Numbered from the stretch's first letter, positions 6,099 through 38,807 are shown. The stretch: 64,000 bases of DNA from Flavobacteriales bacterium (GCA_052437175.1 JBQVOK010000006.1:75066-139065); one strand, 5' to 3'. Made by a program: numbers and translations. The notes: a model not told the origin generated them from the letters alone.

Positions 6099-9000
6099 TT
6101 AGGGATTCAGATAATTGTATTCAATAACGGCTGCATTATACTCCCACAGTAGGTCCAGCCAGGAATCGTATATGCTTAGGCAGTTGCGGTACATCAGGAA
6201 CCATTCGCTGTAACTGATGGCACCGTTCTTCCACTGCGAAAAGGCGATCTTTTCCATCTCTGCGGCGGCAGGCATCAGTTCATTCCGGTAAGTGTCCATA
6301 CTGGCCCGCAGGCGATCGGTACGGCGGGCCGCTGTGCTGTACCGGGCGTTGAACTCGGCCTGCACCGAGCGGTTCAGCGCCTGCACACCCTGGTAACGGA
6401 AGCGGGCGGCGCGGGCCTCCTGTATGGCAGCGCCGCTGAACAGGGGCAGTGCCAGGCCGGCCACAAAAGTGCCAAAGCGTTTTCGTCCGTCAAAGTATAC
6501 TTCGTTACCGTCCGGGTTCTGGTACCCGATAATGGTCATGTTGTTGTAGCCGAGCAGGATATCCGGCAGTACTTTGGACTTACGTACACGCCACTGGTAC
6601 AGGGCCGAATTTTCGAGTGCTGAAGCTTTCAGCAGCAGGGGATGTGTGCCTGCTCTGCTTTGATGAAGAGGCGCCAGCATACTGTCGGTCGCGGGGATGA
6701 AATAGGTGTCTGTCTGCAGGAGGCTGTTGAACAGCTGCAGGGTAAGGTCCGAGTCGTTGCGCAGGTTCAGCAGTTCCTGGCGTACCAGTAGCTGTTCGTT
6801 CTGTGCGCTTTTTTCTTCCCAGAGGCCGGTTTCGCCTGTACGTGCGCGGGTCTGTGCGGCGGCGCTGAAAACCTGCAGCAGGCTGTCTTTCTGGCGTGCC
6901 CGGGCTATTTTCTGCTGTATCCAGAGGTATTTCCAGAAGTGCAGCGAAAGTTCTCTTTCCTTTTCTCGGCGGCTGAGGGCATTATCGGCATAGGCGCCCT
7001 GTTGTTCGCTTTTCAGCAGGCGGCTTTGTGCAGTGTATACCGTAGGGAATTCGAGGCTCTGCTGTAGCTGAAACCCATTGTCCACGGCCGCACTGTTGAT
7101 GTTTCCGTAGGAAAAATTGAACTGTGTCTTAGGCAGGTTCCAGCCGGTACCCCTGCGGGCGGCTATACCCTGCTGTTCCAGGTCCAGTGCACGAAAGCGA
7201 TGACTGCTGTCCTGCATGATACGCAGTGCCTCGTGGTAATGTACCGGCACCTGCGCGGCCGCATAGCCCGTAATACCAAACAGGAGCAGCACCAGGGCCG
7301 CTTTGGGAGACGCTGCTTTGCGCAGCAGGAACAATACCGGTAGCACCAGCAGGGTAAGCAGGGTAGAACTGATGAGTCCGCCGATGACCACGGTGGCCAG
7401 CGGGCGTTGTACTTCGGCCCCGGCGCCGTTGCTGAGGGCCATGGGCAGAAAGCCGAGTGAAGCTACCGTGGCGGTAAGCAGCACGGGACGCAGACGGTTG
7501 ATACAGGCCTGCATTACGATGGCGCTCATGGCCTCATCTCGTCTTTCGGCACGGAGTTTATTGATCTCCGATACCAGTACCACACCGTTGAGCACGGCTA
7601 CCCCGAACAGGGCAATGAAACCGATGCCCGCCGAAATGCTGAATGGCATTCCCCGCAGCCAGAGTGCGGCAATACCACCGATGGAACTGAGCGGGATGGC
7701 CGAATAGACCCGCAGACTTTGTGCTGCCGACCCGAAGGCAAAGAACAACAGCACAAAAATGAGACCCAGTGCCACGGGCAGGGCAATGCTGAGGCGGGCC
7801 GAGGCTTCCTGCAGGTTTTCGAAAGAGCCGCCATAGCGGATGTAATACCCGGAGGGCAGTGCCAGGGAAGCGGCCTGTGCCTGTATGTCTTTTACCACGC
7901 TCTGTACGTCGCGGTCTTTTACATTGAACCCGATAATGATACGCCGCTGTGTGTTTTCGCGCTGTACCTGGTTGTAACCGCTTATTTCGCGGATATCGGC
8001 CAGCATTTCCAGCGGTACTACACTGCCGGAGGCGGTCTGTACGGGCAGCTGCCGCAGGCTTGCCGCCGAATTGCGTATGTCCGGAGGCAGACGAAGTACA
8101 ATATCGTAGCTTTTTTCCCCTTCGTAGATCTGGCCGGCCTTCGTTCCGGAAAAAGCGGCTTCCACGGCGCGGTTCAGTTCGGATACCTGTACCCCGTAGG
8201 CCGCCAGGGCTGCATAGTTGTACCGGATCAGGGTCTGCGGCATACCGCTTACCGATTCTACATAGATATCCGCAGCGCCTTCTGTGTTTTCAATGATACT
8301 GCGCAGGTGGTCTGCGTACTTTACCAGGCTGTCCAGGTCTTCGCCGAATATTTTACACACCACGTCCTGTTTGGCGCCGGTAAGCAGCTCGTTAAAACGC
8401 ATCTGCACCGGGAACTGGAAGCTGAACGTAGCTCCCGGGTTCAGCGAAAGCGCGCGGTTCATGGTATCGGCCAGTGCGGCAAAACTGTGTGCCGTGGTCC
8501 ATTCTTTCTTATCCTTCAGTACCACGATCATATCGGCAATTTCGAGCGGCAGGGGATCGGTAGGGATCTCACTGCTGCCGATCTTGGTGACTACTTTTTC
8601 TACTTCGGGGAATTTCAGCAGTACCTGGGATGCTTTTGAAGTATGTTCCTGGGTGGTATGCAGGCTGGCTCCGGGCAGCAGACGGGTCTCCACGGCAAAA
8701 TCGCCTTCTTCGAGCTGGGGAATAAATTCTCCGCCGATAAAGAACAGCGAAGCGGCTGCCGGGATAAAGAGCAGCAGGGCCAGGCTCAGTACCATTTTTT
8801 TATGCCGGATGGCCTTTGTGAGGATACGGCTGTATTTTTCCTGCAGGAAATGTTCCCAGCGGTCGGCGAAGTTCTTACGTCCGGGGGCGGGTATCTTCAG
8901 CAGCCAGGCGCTCATCATGGGCACATAGGTAAGCGAAAGCATGAAGGCGCCCACCAGTGCAAAGGACACGGTCTGTGCCATGGGTCTGAACATTTTGCCT

Positions 9001-27443: not shown

Positions 27444-27584
27444 ACATAAAGCAAACCTGCCGTATTGTTTTACGTATACTATAGAAATACGGTTTTGTAT
27501 CCGTTACATGCAGTATGGCACTCTTTTTGTGCGATTTTTACAGAAATAGATAAGAATATTGTATATTTATTTAAATATTTCCCT

Positions 27585-28478
27585 ATGAAATACCTGTACG
27601 TTCTATCCGCCTTTCTTCTCTGCAGCCTCTTCCCGCGCACTGTACACGCGCAGTTCATCTATACGGACATAGACCCGGAAATCAGGAGCGAGCTTACCCT
27701 GGACCTGAATGGTGACAGTATAACCGATTTTATTATAAGGTCTGATTTTGCACCTTCCGGCTCGGCACTCCTGGGTGGAGGCGGTACGCATTATTCCATG
27801 ATACGTCCTTACGGCAATTTCGTGCTGCAGGATAGTGTAAGCGGACAGATGAAAATATTCGAGCACGGAGATATGGTGCATGCGGGCCCCGGTCTACCTC
27901 TGTTCGGAGGAGATTATTATTACCGTCTTCTGTTCGAGAGTTACTGGAATTCCTATCCCTCCAACAGTATCAGCGCCGAAAAACAATTTGTGCCGGCAGT
28001 AGCTAATAAGTACCTCGGACTGGCTGTAAACGTGGGCGGACAGTTGTATTACGGATGGCTTAAATTTTCTAAAGTATCTGTGCCGAATGGTTTTGACTGG
28101 CTTATTTTTAAATCCTACGCTTTTAATACCGTTCCCGATGAACCCATTGAGATCGACGATCCCCGTCATGGTGATGAGGCTGAAGAAACGGATCCTGTAT
28201 ATACACCGGGTGTGCAACCTGCGGAAGGAGCCGGGCTTAACCTGTATCCCAATCCGGTACAAGCCGGGCAGACCATCCACCTTATACGTCTGTCGGATGT
28301 GGCGCAACTCGATGTGATCAATATGAACGGCACTACCGTATTTACACGCACGTACGCAGCAGGAACCAAAGAGATCCATTTTTACGAACCGGGACTTAAA
28401 ACGGGTACCTATATGATGCGTATCATCTATACAGATGCCGGACAGGTGCCTACCGTACACCGCATCGTGGTGGAATAA
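27585..28478 (+). CDS. small T9SS type-A cargo protein of unknown function
   Basis: Signal peptide MKYLYVLSAFLLCSLFPRTVHA. C-terminal 'LNLYPNPVQAGQTIHL...GTYMMRIIYTDAGQVPTVHRIVVE' is a Por secretion tail. I chose the start at 27585 rather than the 27465 ORF start. Confidence 0.7.
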   Translation: MKYLYVLSAFLLCSLFPRTVHAQFIYTDIDPEIRSELTLDLNGDSITDFIIRSDFAPSGSALLGGGGTHYSMIRPYGNFVLQDSVSGQMKIFEHGDMVHAGPGLPLFGGDYYYRLLFESYWNSYPSNSISAEKQFVPAVANKYLGLAVNVGGQLYYGWLKFSKVSVPNGFDWLIFKSYAFNTVPDEPIEIDDPRHGDEAEETDPVYTPGVQPAEGAGLNLYPNPVQAGQTIHLIRLSDVAQLDVINMNGTTVFTRTYAAGTKEIHFYEPGLKTGTYMMRIIYTDAGQVPTVHRIVVE

Positions 28479-28484
28479 AAGCGC

Positions 28485-29765
28485 TTACAATCCGAATATC
28501 TTTCTCAGGTAGGGGCTCAGGAACACGCCGTCCGGGTCCTGCGCGGCACGCTGGGCATGGAAAGCATCCCACTGCGGGTAGGCCTGCTGCAGGTAAGCCG
28601 GGGTACAGGTATGCATTTTGCCCCAGTGCGGCCGGCCGCCATGTGCCTGGAAAATAGCTTCCATATCGCGGAAATAACGGGTATTGTCCACACCCTTGTA
28701 GGCATGGCAGGCAATATAGGCCGAGTTGCGCTTATGGGCCGGGCTCAGGTACATTTCGTCCTCTTTTACAAAGCGGTTCTCAATGGGGAAATTGATCGGG
28801 TATTTTTCGCTGCCGAAACGTGCCGTTAGTTCCTTCATTACGTCTTTGTACTGCTCCAGGGGTACGTTGTATTCCATTTCGGTGAACTTTACCAGGCGCT
28901 GCGTGGCAAATACGTTGTGTGCTTCCTTCACTTTGGTTTCCTTTCCGATGAAAGATGCTGTAAGTCGGGAAACGGCAGGCGCTGTGGATGGGAAGTTTTT
29001 TGCCACACTGCAGAACAGCCCGAATACGTGATTCTCCAGCAATACTTCGTCTATCCAGGCTTTCCAGCCCGGTGTATGCGTGGCGGCGGTGGTTACCGCA
29101 TTGCTGTACTTGGTTTGCGTATACGGCGTATGTGGCAGCCAGTAGAATTCGAAGTTGCGGTTTTCATGAATATACGTTTCCAGCTTGTTCAGGACATCCT
29201 CGAGCCGTTCTTTTTTCTTTTCGAGGTGCAGGTTATAGGCAGGCACACAGCGTAGTTTCATACGGGTAATGATGCCCATGCTGCCCAGTGAAATGCGTAT
29301 ACTGTTGAACAGGGCTTCGTCAGCGGCGTTGCAGGTAATGATCTCGCCCTTTCCGTTCACAAAAGTGATCTCTTCGATTTGTGTACTGATATTCCCGAAC
29401 GTGATGCCCGTACCGTGCGTGCCGGTGGCTGTAGCCCCGGAGATCGACTGTACATTGATATCGCCCAGGTTTTCCTGTGAGAGTCCCATGGCAAACAGAT
29501 CGGCGCCCAGTTTTTTCAGTTTGGTGCCGCCCTGTGCCCAGGCACGGTTTTCTTCGGGAGCGGGTGAGGTCTGCTGCATCCTGTCCAGGCTAAGGCTTAG
29601 CTGATCGGTGGCGCAAAGTGCCGTGAACGAATGCCCGGAACCTATGGCCCGGATGTGTTTGCCGTTTTTGCGCGCGCGTATCACCAGGTCGGCAACCTGT
29701 TCTTCGGTTTCGGGATACGCAGTTTCGGAAGGGTTCCAGTGGATGTTTTCGGCCCAGTTTTTCAT
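28485..29765 (-). CDS. FAD-linked oxidase of the D-arabinono-1,4-lactone / L-gulonolactone oxidase family
   Basis: FAD_binding_4-type N-terminus ('IRAIGSGHSFT') and a C-terminal ALO-like domain ('HNVFATQRLVKFTEMEYNVPLEQ'). Confidence 0.75.
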   Translation of the reverse strand: MKNWAENIHWNPSETAYPETEEQVADLVIRARKNGKHIRAIGSGHSFTALCATDQLSLSLDRMQQTSPAPEENRAWAQGGTKLKKLGADLFAMGLSQENLGDINVQSISGATATGTHGTGITFGNISTQIEEITFVNGKGEIITCNAADEALFNSIRISLGSMGIITRMKLRCVPAYNLHLEKKKERLEDVLNKLETYIHENRNFEFYWLPHTPYTQTKYSNAVTTAATHTPGWKAWIDEVLLENHVFGLFCSVAKNFPSTAPAVSRLTASFIGKETKVKEAHNVFATQRLVKFTEMEYNVPLEQYKDVMKELTARFGSEKYPINFPIENRFVKEDEMYLSPAHKRNSAYIACHAYKGVDNTRYFRDMEAIFQAHGGRPHWGKMHTCTPAYLQQAYPQWDAFHAQRAAQDPDGVFLSPYLRKIFGL

Positions 29766-29773
29766 AGTGTTGT

Positions 29774-30982
29774 TCAGTGAAAGTCAAATCCTTCGCCGCG
29801 GTACGTGGGCCATTGGTCCATGAGTCCGCCCGAACGGAAAACGTGCAGGGTATTAAAATGTTCGCAGAGTTCACCGGCTTTGGCGTGGCGCATTACCACA
29901 ATACCGCCGGGTTGCAGCAGGTTGCCGGTGTAGAGCAGGGGCGTTTGTACTTCGCCGGCTCCTTCGTTTTTAAGCAGGGTAGCGCTTTGGGGGCGGTACA
30001 CCTGGGGCGTTTTGGCCGCATCGGTGGCGCCGGAGGCAATAAAACCGCCGCTCTGGCAGGTATAGATGTCCGGGGCCGGATTGCGGGTTACACGCAGTAC
30101 AAAGCCGGCAGCCGGTATATGGCGGAACTGCTGGTAGCCATCGAACAGGTGCGACTGGAAATAGCCCGAACCCACCGTTACTTCGGTTACGTCCTTTTCG
30201 AGGCAGGTGCTTTCGATGCTGCCCGTACCGCCTCCGTTTACCTCTATATTCCGGCCGGTACGGCGGCGTATAAGCGCCACGGCTTCCATACGTCGTTTGG
30301 CGATCTTAGGTACGGAACGCTTTTTCAGGTAGCGGATCACCCGGTTGTACAGACCTTTGCCCGGGGCATTATCGGCAATGCCCGCCACCTGGGCCTCGTA
30401 GCCCATGGCTCCCCATATTTCCAGGCGGGGACAAAGATCCAGCTGGTCCAGGAAACGGGTAAGCGTTTCGGTATTGTTCAGCGAAGAACGGAAAACCCCG
30501 AAATAAATCCCGGGAAAACGTACAGACATGTCCAGGTCGATGCATATACGAACCGTATGGTCCTCGCGGGCGGCAATATCCTGCAGCAGACTGATGTGTT
30601 CCGGCCGGTCGGTCATGAAAATGATGAGCGCCCCGGTTTCCTTCATGGCCTGTATAGCTTCACTGATCTGTTCGGCTTCCATGCAGGGGTACCCGCACAG
30701 GATATTTTTAAAACCGCGGCGTGCGAGCATCACCGATTCGGCTACGGAATACGACATAATGCCGGCAATATGCTGCTGCTGTGCGGCAATATATTCCAGC
30801 ACCCGGCTGTTACGTATGCTCTTGGAGGCAATGCGTACGGGCATGGTACCGCAACGCTGCGAAATGCTGCGGATATTGGCATCCAGGGCATCCAGGTCGA
30901 GCCAGGCCAGGGGCAGGGTACGTCCCGAAAAAAGGGCTGAAAAACGTTCGTAGGAATGGTCCGTTTCAGGATGTGTGGTCAT
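29774..30982 (-). CDS. PLP-dependent enzyme with alanine-racemase-like (fold type III) N-terminal domain (DSD1 / D-threonine aldolase / YhfX-like)
   Basis: 'VRIASKSIR' candidate PLP-lysine segment; TIM-barrel plus C-terminal beta domain length (~400 aa). I chose the start at M32 of the listed ORF to minimise overlap with the upstream gene. Confidence 0.6.
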   Translation of the reverse strand: MTTHPETDHSYERFSALFSGRTLPLAWLDLDALDANIRSISQRCGTMPVRIASKSIRNSRVLEYIAAQQQHIAGIMSYSVAESVMLARRGFKNILCGYPCMEAEQISEAIQAMKETGALIIFMTDRPEHISLLQDIAAREDHTVRICIDLDMSVRFPGIYFGVFRSSLNNTETLTRFLDQLDLCPRLEIWGAMGYEAQVAGIADNAPGKGLYNRVIRYLKKRSVPKIAKRRMEAVALIRRRTGRNIEVNGGGTGSIESTCLEKDVTEVTVGSGYFQSHLFDGYQQFRHIPAAGFVLRVTRNPAPDIYTCQSGGFIASGATDAAKTPQVYRPQSATLLKNEGAGEVQTPLLYTGNLLQPGGIVVMRHAKAGELCEHFNTLHVFRSGGLMDQWPTYRGEGFDFH

Positions 30983-31400
30983 ATACGATTTTCCAGTTCG
31001 ATTTAGTTTTTCTGAAAATAAGGGTGAATCGTCCGCCTGCAGAGGGCGTTTCCGGGTAACTAAGATTCCAGGCACCGCTTACAATGGCCCGTCCGGCCCC
31101 GGCGCAGGTGATCTGCAGCTCGCTGAACTCCAGGGTACCCATGGCTTCTTTACCGGGATAGGCCTTTTTGTAATTATCGAGTGTCTGCTGCCAGCCGGAG
31201 GTCACTTTTTTGCCGCTTACAAAACGCAGTTCGGGTCCGGTACTGTAGCCGGCCATAAATCCTTCGATGTCGCCCCTGTTCCAGGCCTCCTGCTGCATTT
31301 CGAGTACCGCCTGCACTTTCCGGGTACAGGAACAGGCCGCAGAGGCATGGAAAACAGAAAACAAAAGAGAAATGAACAGGAGAACGCTTATTCTTTTCAT
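30966..31400 (-). CDS. SnoaL-like / NTF2-fold protein (DUF4440-like) with signal peptide
   Basis: 'MKRISVLLFISLLFSVFHASAA' signal, then ~120 aa with an 'AWNRGDIEGFMAGY...FVSG' pattern typical of DUF4440/SnoaL-like proteins. Its 3' end overlaps the next gene by 17 nt. Confidence 0.55.
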   Translation of the reverse strand: MKRISVLLFISLLFSVFHASAACSCTRKVQAVLEMQQEAWNRGDIEGFMAGYSTGPELRFVSGKKVTSGWQQTLDNYKKAYPGKEAMGTLEFSELQITCAGAGRAIVSGAWNLSYPETPSAGGRFTLIFRKTKSNWKIVYDHTS

Positions 31401-31534
31401 GGTAAGTTTGTACAGCCAAATTAAAAGAATCCGCTGCAAAAGCCAATACTTTTCTTTAATTTGAAGCGTTAATACGTATGTATATTTGTTTTTAACAAAT
31501 TTTCACTAAATTTACCTCATTAAAAACATCGGGA

Positions 31535-32274: not shown

Positions 32275-34062
32275 TTATTCGCTTTCGGCAAACTGCAGCT
32301 CAATGAGTTTGCGGTAGGCCCCGTTCTCTTTTTCCATCAGGGTATGGTGACTGCCCGTCTCGATGATACGGCCTTTTTCCAGTACCAGTATTTTATCGGC
32401 ATGGCGTATGGTGCTGAGGCGGTGTGCAATAATGATGCTCGTGCGGCCTTCGGTAATTACTTCGGTGGCTTTCTGTATCAGCAGTTCGCTCTCGGTGTCC
32501 ACGCTGCTGGTGGCTTCGTCAAGAATGAGCACTTTGGGCTTGTGCACGTAGGCGCGCAGGAAAGAGATCAGCTGTTTCTGCCCGGCACTGAGCAGTCCGC
32601 CGCGTTCACTCACATGGAAATGATAGGCGCCCGGCAGCCGCGAAATAAACTCATGCGTACCGATCTGTTTCGAGGCTTCGATCACATCCTCCTCACTGAT
32701 GTGCGGGTTGAACAGCGTAATATTGTTCAGGATCGTGTCCGAGAACAGGAATACATCCTGCAAAACCACGGAAACAGAATGGTGCAGGCTGCTGAGACTG
32801 TAGGATTCTATCTTTTTACCATCGAGGTAAATGGTGCCGGAATTGTATTCATAAAAACGGCTCAGCAGGTTGATGATGGACGTTTTTCCGCTGCCGGTGG
32901 CCCCCACCAGTGCAATTTTTTCACCGCGGTAGGCATCAAAGGAAATACCGTTGAGTACGTAGTCTTCGTCGTTGTAGGCAAAGTATACCTCGCGGAACGA
33001 AATATCGCCGGCAATATTCCCTGCGTCTTCCGTGCCGGTGTCTTCGATCACGGGATTGCTGTCCAGGATGGCAAAAACGCGTTCGGCACTTACCACGCCC
33101 ATCTGCAGGGTGTTAAAACGGTCGGCCAGCTGGCGCATGGGCCTGTACAGGATGTAAATATACAGTACAAAAGAGATGATGAGACCGGGAGAGGCTTCGC
33201 CGTTTGCTGACTGTGCCGCTACCATTTCGCCGGCGGCATACCACACCACCAGGCCTATGCTGATGGCCGTGATCACTTCTACCACGGGAAAAAACACGGA
33301 GTAGTACCAGATGGAACGTATGTGCGCCTTGCGGTGCTGTCCGTTGATCTCGCGGAATTTCTTCATTTCTTCGTCCTCGCGGCTGAAGATCTGTACAATG
33401 CTCATGCCCACCACGTGCTCCTGCACAAAGGCGCTGAGTTCGGCCACCTTGTTGCGTACTTCGCCGAAGGTCTTTTTAATGCCGTTCTTGAATACATTAG
33501 TAGCGATTACCAGCAGGGGAACCGGGATCAGGGTAATGAGCGTCAGTTTCCAGTCCTGGTACAGCATAACGCCTATTACGGTGAAAATTTTCAGGAAATC
33601 GGCCAGGATCTGCAGGAAACCTTCCGAAAAAATGCTGGCGATGGTCTCGATATCACTGATGACGCGGGTAACCAGGGTGCCCACGGCGGTGTTATCGAAA
33701 TACTTCAGTTTAAAACGGTTCAGGTGGCGGAACAGCTGCGAACGTATGTCGCGGATCACGAACTGCCCCAGCTGGTTGCTGCTGTAGGTGCTGAGGAATT
33801 GCAGGATCGACTCTGCAAAGAGCAGGGCTACCATCCAGCTTACCATGATCAGCAGTTCGCGGTAATTGCCGGTGAGTATGGTATCGTCGATGGTCTGTTC
33901 GACCAGGTAGGGACGTACGGGAGATACGGCAGCGACCAGTAAGGTAATGGTTACCGCTGTGTACCAGAGACTTTTATAGGGAGAAACGAAACGGTACAGC
34001 CTTTTTAGCAGGCTGAAATCGAATGCGTTACCTGATTTTTTTTCTGCCATAGAATGGAGCAA
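32275..34062 (-). CDS. ABC transporter permease/ATP-binding fusion protein (MsbA-like exporter)
   Basis: Six-TM N-terminal domain; Walker A 'GATGSGKTS', signature 'LSAGQKQ', Walker B 'ILILDEATSSVD'. Confidence 0.9.
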   Translation of the reverse strand: MLHSMAEKKSGNAFDFSLLKRLYRFVSPYKSLWYTAVTITLLVAAVSPVRPYLVEQTIDDTILTGNYRELLIMVSWMVALLFAESILQFLSTYSSNQLGQFVIRDIRSQLFRHLNRFKLKYFDNTAVGTLVTRVISDIETIASIFSEGFLQILADFLKIFTVIGVMLYQDWKLTLITLIPVPLLVIATNVFKNGIKKTFGEVRNKVAELSAFVQEHVVGMSIVQIFSREDEEMKKFREINGQHRKAHIRSIWYYSVFFPVVEVITAISIGLVVWYAAGEMVAAQSANGEASPGLIISFVLYIYILYRPMRQLADRFNTLQMGVVSAERVFAILDSNPVIEDTGTEDAGNIAGDISFREVYFAYNDEDYVLNGISFDAYRGEKIALVGATGSGKTSIINLLSRFYEYNSGTIYLDGKKIESYSLSSLHHSVSVVLQDVFLFSDTILNNITLFNPHISEEDVIEASKQIGTHEFISRLPGAYHFHVSERGGLLSAGQKQLISFLRAYVHKPKVLILDEATSSVDTESELLIQKATEVITEGRTSIIIAHRLSTIRHADKILVLEKGRIIETGSHHTLMEKENGAYRKLIELQFAESE

Positions 34063-34144: not shown

Positions 34145-35086
34145 CTATTGGGGGTTCATGGCGTTCCAGCGGTTGGCATTGGCCCCGTCGATCTTGTTCA
34201 TGATCTTGATAAGGTCTACGATCTCGGGCTTGGGAGCGTCTTTCATCAGGTTCAGGGCTTCGTCGCGTTTGGCGTTGAGCGCGATGTACAGCAGGTATGA
34301 ACTGGCTTTCTGCTTGTGTATCTCTTCCAGTTTGGCCAGTGCCTGGAAAGCCAGGGGACGTTTGGCGTCAAAATCACTGAAGAACTGGTCGAAGGCATTG
34401 CGGTGGTAATCGTACATGAAGGTCCGGAAGGGCTCGTAGGCCGGGCTGGTGATCTCTTCGATCATTACCCAGCGGGAACGCAGTTTGTTGCTTTCCAGTC
34501 TCCAGCCTTTTTCGGCAGAGGATACCTGGGCCAGCTGTGCGATCTGCATAGCCTTGTTGAAATACGGTGTACCGCCCAGGGGCGAGAATGAATCGTAGTC
34601 CAGCCCGATGATCATGTAAGCATAGAACGACAGTATGGAACTGAGATTGTTCAGGTAGGTGGTGCTGCTGTAATCGAATACCTGGTTCAGCTGGTACACG
34701 ATGGTAAAATCTTCGTCGAGCACGTTGAGGATCGGTGTGTAATAGCTGCTGCCGTACACAGGGCGGCGTGAGGTAACCGTAAGCGAACCGGAATATTTAC
34801 CGTCACTGGCCGAACCTGATTTCAGGTTGAACAGCAGGTTACATTCGATCTTTTCGTATTGTTCGTAGGTCTCCGATGTCCATTTGGTATTGTTCAGGAA
34901 ATTGGTGCACTGGCTTTCGAGGGCCGACCAGATGCTTTTATCCACGTTGGCGATCTCGCCGCCACCGGTTATGCTCACTTCCACGCGGGCCTGCAGTTCC
35001 TGGGCATAGCTTTGCGAAAGCCCGGCCAGGCTTAAAAGGGCGCTGAGACATATATAGGAGAGACTTTTTTTCATTGAATAAACCAC
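34145..35086 (-). CDS. DUF4835-family protein (Bacteroidota-specific)
   Basis: Signal peptide. In Bacteroidota this family is typically encoded next to coaBC, as it is here. The alternative start at 35074 (MKKS...) abuts the coaBC stop. Confidence 0.6.
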   Translation of the reverse strand: MVYSMKKSLSYICLSALLSLAGLSQSYAQELQARVEVSITGGGEIANVDKSIWSALESQCTNFLNNTKWTSETYEQYEKIECNLLFNLKSGSASDGKYSGSLTVTSRRPVYGSSYYTPILNVLDEDFTIVYQLNQVFDYSSTTYLNNLSSILSFYAYMIIGLDYDSFSPLGGTPYFNKAMQIAQLAQVSSAEKGWRLESNKLRSRWVMIEEITSPAYEPFRTFMYDYHRNAFDQFFSDFDAKRPLAFQALAKLEEIHKQKASSYLLYIALNAKRDEALNLMKDAPKPEIVDLIKIMNKIDGANANRWNAMNPQ

Positions 35087-37538: not shown

Positions 37539-38807
37539 ATGGCGGATCTTTTTGATAAATTCAGAAAAAACATGGGCCCACTGGGCCGCTTAGCCACTGT
37601 GGCTCACGGTTATTTCACCTTTCCGAAGCTGGAAGGGGAGATCGGAAGCCGTATGAAATTCCGGGGTAAAGACGTATTGGTATGGAGCCTCAACAACTAC
37701 CTGGGCCTGGCCAATCACCCCGAAGTACGTAAGGCCGATGCCGATGCAGCGGCGGCGTACGGGCTGGCATACCCGATGGGTGCGCGCATGCTTACCGGGG
37801 AAAGTAATTTCCACGAAGAACTGGAAACGGGCCTGGCCAAACTGGTGGGCAAACCGGCCGGTATGCTGCTTAACTATGGTTACCAGGGCTGTATGTCGGT
37901 GATCGACGCACTGGTAAGCCGTCATGATGTGATCGTGTACGATGCCGAGTGTCATGCCTGCATCGTGGATGGTGTACGCCTGCATGCCGGTAACCGTTTC
38001 GTTTTTCAGCATAACGATATGGAAAGCCTGGAAAAACAGCTGCAGCGTGCCGAAAAGCTGACCGAAAAATCGGGCGGCGGCGTACTGGTGATCACCGAAG
38101 GTGTATACGGTATGACCGGTGAGCAGGGACGTATCGCCGATATCGTAAGCCTGAAATCAAAATACAATTTCCGCCTGCTGGTAGACGATGCCCACGGTAT
38201 CGGTACCCTGGGTGCCAAAGGCGGCGGTGCCTGCGAAGAGCAGAACGCCATCGAAGGCGTGGACATCATCTTCGGCACCTTTGCCAAATCCTTTGCCCTC
38301 ACGGGCGCCTGGGTGGCCGGTGAACCCGACATCATGATGTACCTGAAATACAACGTACGTTCACAGATCTACGCCAAAACCCTGCCTATGCCGCTGGTTA
38401 TCGGTGCGCTGAAACGCCTCGAGATCATGAACCGCAGCACCGAGCAGAAAGATAAACTGTGGGCGGTGGTGAATTCCCTGCAGTCGGGCCTGCGTGAAGC
38501 CGGTTTCGACCTGGGCAAGACCAACTCCTGCGTTACCCCGGTAATGATGCACGGTGGCGAGAACGAAGCCTCCAACCTGGTGGTGGACCTGCGCGAGAAC
38601 TACGGTATCTTCTGTTCCATGGTGATCTACCCGGTGATCCCGAAAGGTATGATCCTGCTGCGCCTGATCCCGACCGCTTCACACACACAGGAAGATGTGG
38701 AATACACCATCCGTATCTTTAAAGAAGTGCGCGATAAACTGGCCAACGGCGGTTACGACAAAGAACGTCCGGCTTCCCTGCTGGCCGAGCTTCAGGCCAA
38801 AGCCTAA
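37539..38807 (+). CDS. alpha-oxoamine synthase family PLP enzyme (serine palmitoyltransferase / 8-amino-7-oxononanoate synthase / KBL-like)
   Basis: Class-II aminotransferase fold with the 'GTFAKSFA' PLP-lysine region. 422 aa. Confidence 0.8.
   Translation: MADLFDKFRKNMGPLGRLATVAHGYFTFPKLEGEIGSRMKFRGKDVLVWSLNNYLGLANHPEVRKADADAAAAYGLAYPMGARMLTGESNFHEELETGLAKLVGKPAGMLLNYGYQGCMSVIDALVSRHDVIVYDAECHACIVDGVRLHAGNRFVFQHNDMESLEKQLQRAEKLTEKSGGGVLVITEGVYGMTGEQGRIADIVSLKSKYNFRLLVDDAHGIGTLGAKGGGACEEQNAIEGVDIIFGTFAKSFALTGAWVAGEPDIMMYLKYNVRSQIYAKTLPMPLVIGALKRLEIMNRSTEQKDKLWAVVNSLQSGLREAGFDLGKTNSCVTPVMMHGGENEASNLVVDLRENYGIFCSMVIYPVIPKGMILLRLIPTASHTQEDVEYTIRIFKEVRDKLANGGYDKERPASLLAELQAKA

Follow-up and report, generated by a model that had tools for sequence, protein, structure and literature searches.

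The closest described counterpart of the genes reported here is the sphBCD operon of Pseudomonas aeruginosa (PA5328-PA5326). Sphingosine or sphingomyelin induces this operon by way of SphR, a regulator of the AraC type, and the porin-like gene sphA and the ceramidase gene cerN are induced along with it (PMC3900636, PMC5150637). SphC and SphD are described as ALO-like and Ala_racemase_N-like, respectively, and their induction by sphingomyelin or sphingosine through SphR is 18- to 45-fold (PMC5150637, PMC3900636). SphD is a fold type III enzyme that also goes by "threonine-aldolase-like." SphC is exported by way of twin-arginine translocation (TAT; PMC6085387), deletion of sphBC halts the consumption of sphingosine, and sphingosine accumulates in P. 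aeruginosa when SphC is deleted (PMC11893366). Here, we compare sphBCD with a three-gene locus at positions 28,485 to 31,400 of a 64,000-nucleotide stretch of DNA, which we call the window, from a Flavobacteriales bacterium (GCA_052437175.1 JBQVOK010000006.1:75066-139065). The locus encodes an exported SnoaL-like protein, a fold type III pyridoxal phosphate (PLP) enzyme, and a flavin adenine dinucleotide (FAD) oxidase. We conclude that the latter two make up a variant of the SphC/SphD module, one that resides in the cytoplasm, has no cytochrome, probably relies on O2, and includes a PLP enzyme of a distinct subfamily. On balance, we lean slightly toward the view that the pair acts on sphingoid bases as a cytoplasmic, cytochrome-independent version of SphC and SphD.

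The pair shares its basic organization with SphC and SphD. The initial annotation knew of no pathway that matched this gene combination, but sphBCD encodes just such a combination in SphC, an ALO-family flavoenzyme, and SphD, a PLP enzyme of the Ala_racemase_N type (PMC3900636, PMC5150637, PMC11893366). The two-enzyme combination has the same Pfam architectures in both cases, SphC and the window oxidase both fall in the NCBIfam subfamily TIGR01679, and SphD and the window PLP enzyme are of equal length (402 amino acids) and homologous from end to end. Moreover, relatives of the window pair cluster with neutral ceramidase, the enzyme that is coregulated with sphBCD. The two systems also differ. 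Whereas SphC has a TAT signal and the cytochrome c SphB as a partner, the window oxidase has neither. A search for SphB homologs gave none, either in the window or across 80 genome loci, which were sampled from many phyla around relatives of the PLP gene (38 to 48% identity) and searched with the window proteins and other probes. SphA and SphR belong to the P. aeruginosa regulon, but neither is found in the window. The PLP gene precedes the oxidase gene in the window, whereas the oxidase gene comes first in P. aeruginosa, and the window adds the gene for the exported SnoaL-like protein. The SphC sequence used throughout was taken from a P. aeruginosa locus (L087; GCA_037997005.1) that was found through a fragment protein bearing the published SphC signal peptide. 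We note that sphC (7001-8394) is called there as a 37-amino-acid TAT-signal open reading frame (ORF) and an overlapping 436-amino-acid ORF, and the split may be either a frameshift or an artifact of assembly or annotation.

Profile scores place the oxidase beside SphC. The FAD_binding_4 and ALO domains score 84.3 and 248.5 bits, respectively, above the curated cutoffs of Pfam; the covalent-FAD histidine motif GSGHSF is present; and identity to SphC (PA5327) is 34% between residues 9-426 of the oxidase and 15-435 of SphC (E 3e-78). Against the TIGR01679 model (bact_FAD_ox), the oxidase reaches 388.9 bits with a cutoff of 292.25, and P. aeruginosa SphC itself reaches 466.1 bits. The oxidase has no signal peptide, as the protein begins at position 2 of the model without an N-terminal extension, and both the oxidase and the PLP enzyme begin directly at their catalytic domains. 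Finally, the gatekeeper residue of the oxidase is a glycine (in NLGD) that aligns with Ala113 of L-galactonolactone dehydrogenase, in an alignment anchored by the Protein Data Bank entries of the A113G and wild-type forms of that enzyme. Glycine occupies the position in 58 of 58 PLP-linked oxidases, whereas alanine occupies it in cytochrome c-coupled SphC, the only alanine-type SphC compared. The difference suggests that O2 takes the place of a cytochrome as the electron acceptor of the cytoplasmic enzymes.

Whether the oxidase acts on sugars was also considered. In a reading along the lines of the initial annotation, the pair would combine an aldonolactone (gulono- or arabinono-lactone) or alditol oxidase, with a sugar acid or polyol as its substrate, and a D-serine/D-threonine dehydratase or aldolase in a sugar-amino acid pathway. 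The ALO domain is consistent with that reading, and the nearest solved relatives of the oxidase are alditol oxidase (2vfr) and L-galactonolactone dehydrogenase. Moreover, Rv1771 of Mycobacterium tuberculosis, a protein of the TIGR01679 type, is reportedly an L-gulonolactone dehydrogenase. The alditol oxidase AldO and the related GULO, ALO, and GLDH of the VAO superfamily share the FAD_binding_4 plus ALO architecture and the covalent-histidine motif with the window oxidase, and AldO oxidizes a terminal primary alcohol beside a substituted carbon, which is the chemistry proposed below for the window enzyme. Similarity to these enzymes is mainly in the FAD domain, however (E ~1e-27), and the oxidase scores 245.4 bits against TIGR01678, the model for sugar-1,4-lactone oxidases (GULO/ALO), well under its cutoff of 396.8, while it exceeds the cutoff of TIGR01679, the model that also holds SphC. 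Furthermore, sugar kinases, lactonases, dehydratases, and sugar transporters did not recur beside the pair in the 80 genomes; the neighbors that do recur are ceramidase, sphingomyelinase-like genes, aldehyde dehydrogenases, and GMC oxidoreductases. The conserved partners of the oxidase are a PLP enzyme and sphingolipid hydrolases and not genes of sugar metabolism. Given the low TIGR01678 score and the lack of recurring sugar genes, we rejected an aldonolactone or vitamin C-type oxidase, and we regard the sugar-amino acid pathway as very improbable.

The PLP enzyme resembles D-specific aldolases. Its Ala_racemase_N domain scores 34.9 bits, above the curated cutoff, and its subfamily comprises more than 7,900 proteins under the NCBI name "amino acid deaminase/aldolase." The lysine in VRIASKS that had been singled out as the candidate PLP ligand is K54, which is invariant in 28 homologs and aligns with the lysine of the RPHAKAHK motif in a solved D-threonine aldolase. 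A second motif, RHAKAGE (H366, K368, and E371), is likewise invariant in the subfamily. An AlphaFold model (pLDDT 90.5) predicts a TIM barrel and a β-domain, with the PLP lysine closing strand 1. The best Foldseek matches of the model (6qkb, 4v15, 7dib, and 7yqa; E 8e-27 to 1e-21; TM 0.78 to 0.85) are β-hydroxyaspartate aldolase and three D-threonine aldolases, and D-threo-3-hydroxyaspartate dehydratase, D-serine dehydratase, and alanine racemases rank lower. Besides fold and lysine position, the N-terminal barrel is similar in sequence to that of D-threonine aldolase, BhcC, and DSD1 (E 3e-16 to 4e-11), but overall identity is only 15 to 20%, and the enzyme scores 40 bits against the BhcC equivalog model, which has a cutoff of 690. 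As the model lies nearest to aldolases specific for D-β-hydroxy amino acids, it would fit a D-specific aldol cleavage. The specificity of that family for D-β-hydroxy-α-amino acids is what the substrate proposed below would need, and the earlier idea of a D-hydroxy amino acid type of substrate fits the evidence as well. The relationship to SphD (PA5326) is more distant, with 23 to 24% identity (BLASTP, 23%, E 3e-10; hhalign, probability 99.1%, 351 columns), which points to a separate subfamily. Unlike SphD, the window enzyme carries an additional loop, FPGxYFG, and its residues 210 to 242 form a long helix.

The PLP gene and the oxidase gene are conserved as a pair. An oxidase homolog adjoins the PLP gene in 51 of the 80 genomes, and two further cases are truncated. 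The oxidase gene is almost always immediately downstream on the same strand; the two genes are convergent in Solirubrobacterales. Paired loci are found in Bacillota, Chloroflexota, Actinomycetota, Beta- and Gammaproteobacteria, Myxococcota, Acidobacteriota, Bacteroidota, and the haloarchaeon Halorientalis, such that the pairing spans at least eight phyla and one archaeon. We conclude that the pair is a widely conserved functional unit. In another 10 of the 80 genomes (L002, L004, L006, L008, L026, L039, L050, L051, L056, and L064), a GMC oxidoreductase takes the place of the oxidase, and these loci mostly carry an aldehyde dehydrogenase nearest to the betaine and aminoaldehyde dehydrogenases. 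The GMC cassette appears to be a nonorthologous replacement of the oxidation step, and its combination with an aldehyde dehydrogenase of that type supports the conversion of an amino alcohol, by way of an aldehyde, to an amino acid. A GMC replacement was also seen beside the PLP gene in L120. In Paenibacillus, a class 3 aldehyde dehydrogenase is encoded directly upstream of the pair, with human fatty aldehyde dehydrogenase as its second-best solved relative (E 1e-126), which fits a fatty aldehyde as the product. PLP genes without an oxidase, GMC, or ceramidase partner had unrelated neighbors (AAA ATPases, SecDF, peptidase M28, and a nucleoid protein). Finally, we note that in a Burkholderia lata locus (L040, 6001-12310) the genes for the PLP enzyme and the oxidase are followed, in order, by those for an MFS-like membrane protein, a porin, and a regulator of the AraC family that shares 39% identity with SphR. 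The arrangement is reminiscent of the sph locus, except that cytochrome c and a TAT signal are both missing.

Relatives of the PLP gene are linked to genes of sphingolipid breakdown. Seven of the 80 genomes have a neutral ceramidase gene (PF04734) upstream of the PLP gene; it is the immediate neighbor in six and one gene away in L041, and the order in Saprospira (L009) is ceramidase-PLP-oxidase. For a reciprocal test, the seven PLP-linked ceramidases served as a profile that retrieved 80 ceramidase-centered loci from metagenomes. A PLP gene of the window type was found downstream in 24 of these 80 loci, including 19 of the 52 with at least 1.3 kb of downstream sequence. A SphC-like oxidase was encoded in 11 of the 80, nine times together with the PLP gene, and one locus had the order ceramidase-PLP-aldehyde dehydrogenase-GMC. 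Moreover, in five metagenome loci (L152, L156, L163, L164, and L165), the gene order is ceramidase, secreted EEP-family protein, PLP enzyme, oxidase. Among solved structures, the EEP protein is related only to bacterial sphingomyelinases C and beta-hemolysin (E ~1e-11), and the five loci look like a complete cluster for the breakdown of sphingomyelin or ceramide. The four genes lie on the same strand (5995-10930 in L163). In three Chitinophagales loci (L010, L014, and L017; 900-6000), genes for two tandem TonB-dependent receptors (CarboxypepD_reg, Plug, and barrel domains) are the immediate upstream neighbors of either ceramidase-PLP or a lone PLP gene, and the receptors suggest active uptake of a substrate across the outer membrane.

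How the pair would act on sphingoid bases can be proposed in three steps. The substrates would be long-chain 2-amino-1,3-diols (sphinganine, sphingosine, and phytosphingosine), either for catabolism or for detoxification. First, the SphC-like flavoenzyme would oxidize the C1 primary alcohol, passing electrons probably to O2, and perhaps carry the aldehyde on to the acid. Second, a D-erythro base oxidized in this way at C1 would become a (2R,3R)-2-amino-3-hydroxy fatty acid, the long-alkyl analog of D-allo-threonine. Third, the fold III PLP enzyme would cleave the C2-C3 bond by a D-specific retro-aldol reaction to yield glycine and a fatty aldehyde. When C1 of a (2S,3R) sphingoid base is oxidized to a carboxylate, the groups that were once the carboxyl and the hydroxymethyl of serine exchange roles, giving the (2R,3R) configuration of D-allo-threonine. 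We infer that such a product could be cleaved by a D-specific fold III aldolase but not by an L-threonine aldolase. The homology to SphC and SphD, the conserved pairing, and the linkage of relatives to ceramidase and sphingomyelinase-like genes are directly supported by the observations above. Our inferences concern the substrate, the products, the electron acceptor, and the order of the steps, and the presumed order is drawn by analogy from the genetics of P. aeruginosa only.

The proposed route can be set against the sphingosine-1-phosphate (S1P) lyase pathway. That pathway, found in eukaryotes and a few bacteria, consists of a kinase, a fold I PLP lyase, and the fatty aldehyde dehydrogenase ALDH3A2. 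Both routes center on a PLP-dependent retro-aldol cleavage between C2 and C3 of a sphingoid base that gives a long-chain aldehyde, and the class 3 aldehyde dehydrogenase beside the Paenibacillus pair is a further likeness. The window system has no kinase, however, and activation would occur by oxidation at C1 and not by phosphorylation. Moreover, the PLP enzymes are unrelated, of fold type III in the window and type I in the lyase, and the predicted C2 product is glycine and not phosphoethanolamine. S1P lyase nonetheless establishes that a PLP enzyme can perform a retro-aldol reaction on a 2-amino-1,3-diol without a carboxylate. In a reversed order, the PLP enzyme of the window might act first, splitting the sphingoid base into ethanolamine and a fatty aldehyde, and the flavoenzyme, or the GMC oxidoreductase with its aldehyde dehydrogenase, might then convert ethanolamine to glycine. 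The GMC oxidoreductase and the betaine aldehyde-type aldehyde dehydrogenase do resemble the pair that converts choline to glycine betaine, that is, enzymes of small amino alcohols, and several ceramidase loci have the PLP gene without an oxidase gene within 6 kb. Two loci (L095 and L101) show the opposite, however, with ceramidase and oxidase genes but no PLP gene, and the D-threonine aldolase fold acts on α-amino acids. Moreover, in P. aeruginosa, the accumulation of sphingosine upon deletion of SphC and the dispensability of SphD indicate that the oxidase acts first (PMC11893366). We consider the reversed order quite improbable and retain oxidation at C1 as the first step.

Several observations weigh against sphingoid bases as the substrate of the pair. 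Approximately 50 of the 51 oxidase-PLP pairs have no ceramidase gene within 6 kb, and the 64-kb window encodes no homolog of ceramidase, sphingomyelinase, SphA, SphB, or SphR. The reciprocal test was biased, as the ceramidase profile was built from loci already linked to the PLP gene and samples one ceramidase clade. P. aeruginosa does not need sphD to grow on sphingosine, and its sphingosine product has yet to be identified (PMC11893366). The PLP enzyme, to judge by its sequence, belongs to a subfamily other than that of SphD, and a Pfam search of the enzyme gave no match to PF14031, the C-terminal D-ser_dehydrat domain, such that its C-terminal domain, unlike those of D-threonine aldolase, BhcC, and DSD1, escapes detection by sequence. 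The gatekeeper rule has an exception in alditol oxidase, which has alanine at that position yet is an oxidase, and the glycine/alanine contrast was downgraded from proof of oxidase versus dehydrogenase activity to a hint. Finally, an APC amino acid permease gene adjoins the pair in five Ktedonobacteria loci, which makes a smaller amino alcohol substrate possible in some or all clades.

What the pair degrades could therefore be a small soluble amino alcohol or a D-β-hydroxy amino acid (serinol, threoninol, or D-serine or D-threonine formed from an amino alcohol), with the sphingolipid link limited to certain clades. Besides the Ktedonobacteria permeases and the scarcity of nearby ceramidase genes, MFS transporter genes lie near eight of the pairs (Bacillus group and Solirubrobacterales), and the oxidase and the PLP enzyme are both cytoplasmic. 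Moreover, the aldehyde dehydrogenase in the GMC cassette most resembles the betaine/aminoaldehyde type, which takes small substrates, and the nearest solved relatives of the two enzymes act on D-threonine, hydroxyaspartate, and alditols. The PLP gene repeatedly adjoins ceramidase and sphingomyelinase-like genes, however, and TonB-dependent receptor genes lie upstream in the Chitinophagales loci. Furthermore, the P. aeruginosa homologs respond to sphingosine and are needed for its consumption (PMC3900636, PMC11893366). We think it unlikely that small substrates account for the pair, and action on sphingoid bases is the reading we carry forward.

The SnoaL-like gene is an accessory that is confined to the lineage of the window. 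The protein scores 33.4 bits with SnoaL_3 (gathering threshold 22) and 32.3 bits with DUF4440 (gathering threshold 25.2), and an identical database protein is named "YybH family protein." The signal peptide that the initial annotation had assigned to it is borne out by inspection: the N terminus, judged by eye, is basic, 14 hydrophobic residues and an ASA|A site follow, and the layout is the same in both relatives of the locus. These relatives (L081 to L083 and L084 to L086) keep all three genes and the same 17-nucleotide overlap, at PLP enzyme identities of 80% and also of 53%, and the downstream flank differs. Outside this lineage, a SnoaL-like gene was found near the PLP gene in 0 of the 80 genomes, and four SnoaL-like homologs of approximately 50% identity that reside on long contigs have unrelated neighborhoods. 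Thus, of the three-gene set proposed at the outset, the PLP-oxidase pair is coconserved, but the SnoaL-like gene is not a general third member, and we rejected a role as a conserved third enzyme beyond its own lineage. We speculate that the exported SnoaL/NTF2-like protein may bind a hydrophobic ligand in the periplasm.

The compact, operon-like structure of the locus is real (Table 1). The ORF list and a direct reading of the junctions agree with the three tightly packed minus-strand genes, the 17-nucleotide overlap, and the 8-nucleotide gap first described, and the three domain calls made at that time (SnoaL_3/DUF4440, fold III PLP, and FAD_binding_4 plus ALO) were right, with every Pfam score above the curated cutoff. 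Each gene has hundreds to thousands of homologs, and thus none is a chance ORF. The start of the PLP gene is supported by a 100%-identical database protein that is also 402 amino acids long, and through the 17-nucleotide overlap the SnoaL-like gene is translationally coupled to it. A convergent gene, the product of which has a type IX secretion system (T9SS) sorting domain, ends 6 nucleotides from the oxidase stop codon, and a divergent gene starts 134 nucleotides upstream of the SnoaL-like ATG, such that the three genes form a structurally isolated unit.

Table 1. Positions of the three genes and of surrounding features in the window
Feature	Coordinates	Strand	Description
SnoaL-like gene	30966-31400	-	144 amino acids, ATG start; Pfam SnoaL_3/DUF4440
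Fold III PLP enzyme gene	29774-30982	-	402 amino acids; ATG overlaps the SnoaL-like stop by 17 nucleotides
FAD oxidase gene, SphC-like	28485-29765	-	426 amino acids; start 8 nucleotides past the PLP gene stop
Divergent intergenic region	31401-31534		134 nucleotides; presumed promoter region of the three-gene unit
Conserved intergenic stretch	31490-31513	-	24 nucleotides
T9SS type A sorting-domain protein gene	27465-28478	+	
MsbA-like ABC exporter gene	32275-34062	-	
T9SS PorD gene	34145-35086	-	291 bits (cutoff 170)
Alpha-oxoamine synthase gene	37539-38807	+	

The intergenic region upstream of the operon contains a conserved element. A 24-nucleotide stretch, AAATTTAGTGAAAATTTGTTAAAA, is kept at the same intergenic position in L081 and L084, and it is kept in L084 although the flanking PLP protein is only 53% identical. 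The element could serve both the operon and the divergent gene as a common promoter or operator; the divergent gene encodes a 245-amino-acid protein with a weak match to DUF3575. Upstream of the operon there is no exact match to the Bacteroidetes -7 promoter motif TAnnTTTG, only TTTG elements. The T9SS genes and the MsbA-like exporter gene around the operon confirm a Bacteroidota host and have no evident link to the operon.

The organism that carries the locus may have a sphingoid base analog of its own. The alpha-oxoamine synthase of the window is a full-length match to the solved cysteate-C-fatty acyltransferases 28eh (E 6e-170) and 7u7h and falls far under the cutoffs for serine palmitoyltransferase and KBL. 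We rejected its assignment as a serine palmitoyltransferase, which would have implied endogenous sphingolipids, and the acyltransferase match indicates that the organism probably makes sulfonolipids (capnine), which are analogs of sphingoid bases. Perhaps, then, the module acts on capnine, and the PLP enzyme yields taurine and a fatty aldehyde. The acyltransferase gene is 6 kb from the operon, and the synteny of the two is kept in relatives. The genes in between are housekeeping genes, however (CoaBC, RpoZ, BamD, PorD, and the ABC exporter), and sulfonolipid synthesis is not known from most carriers of the pair, Bacillota and Actinomycetota among them. Moreover, capnine has no C1 hydroxyl, and the conserved oxidase partner would therefore have no role. 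We consider capnine an extremely improbable substrate.

On skin, in airways, and around roots, free sphingoid bases act as antimicrobial lipids, and Bacteroidota of the gut are rich in sphingolipids. To our knowledge, how bacteria destroy sphingoid bases is still biochemically unsolved, and in the literature we found no biochemically defined bacterial oxidase/aldolase route for sphingosine, only the work of Wargo and of Okino and Ito. That the product of sphBCD has never been identified is due in part to SphC being TAT exported and cytochrome dependent. The variant described here, by comparison, is soluble, cytoplasmic, and probably linked to O2, and as it occurs in cultured Bacillus, Paenibacillus, Burkholderia, and Ktedonobacter, the proposed two-step chemistry can be tested in vitro. 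Tentatively, and at somewhat less than even confidence, we suggest that the window is one instance of a widespread and hitherto undescribed route for sphingoid bases that is free of S1P lyase. In that route, O2-using oxidation at C1 by a SphC-like enzyme would be followed by cleavage to glycine and a fatty aldehyde by a new PLP subfamily of the D-threonine aldolase fold, full sphingomyelinase-ceramidase-PLP-oxidase clusters would occur in many uncultured Bacteroidota and in other phyla, and the exported NTF2-like protein would have been recruited in the window lineage, perhaps to bind sphingoid bases in the periplasm. Independent genomic evidence for the pathway comes from the clustering of the pair's relatives with genes for ceramidase and sphingomyelinase-like proteins. 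Ultimately, the range of the putative pathway is widened well beyond Firmicutes, Actinobacteria, and Proteobacteria, the limit of a STRING co-occurrence search.

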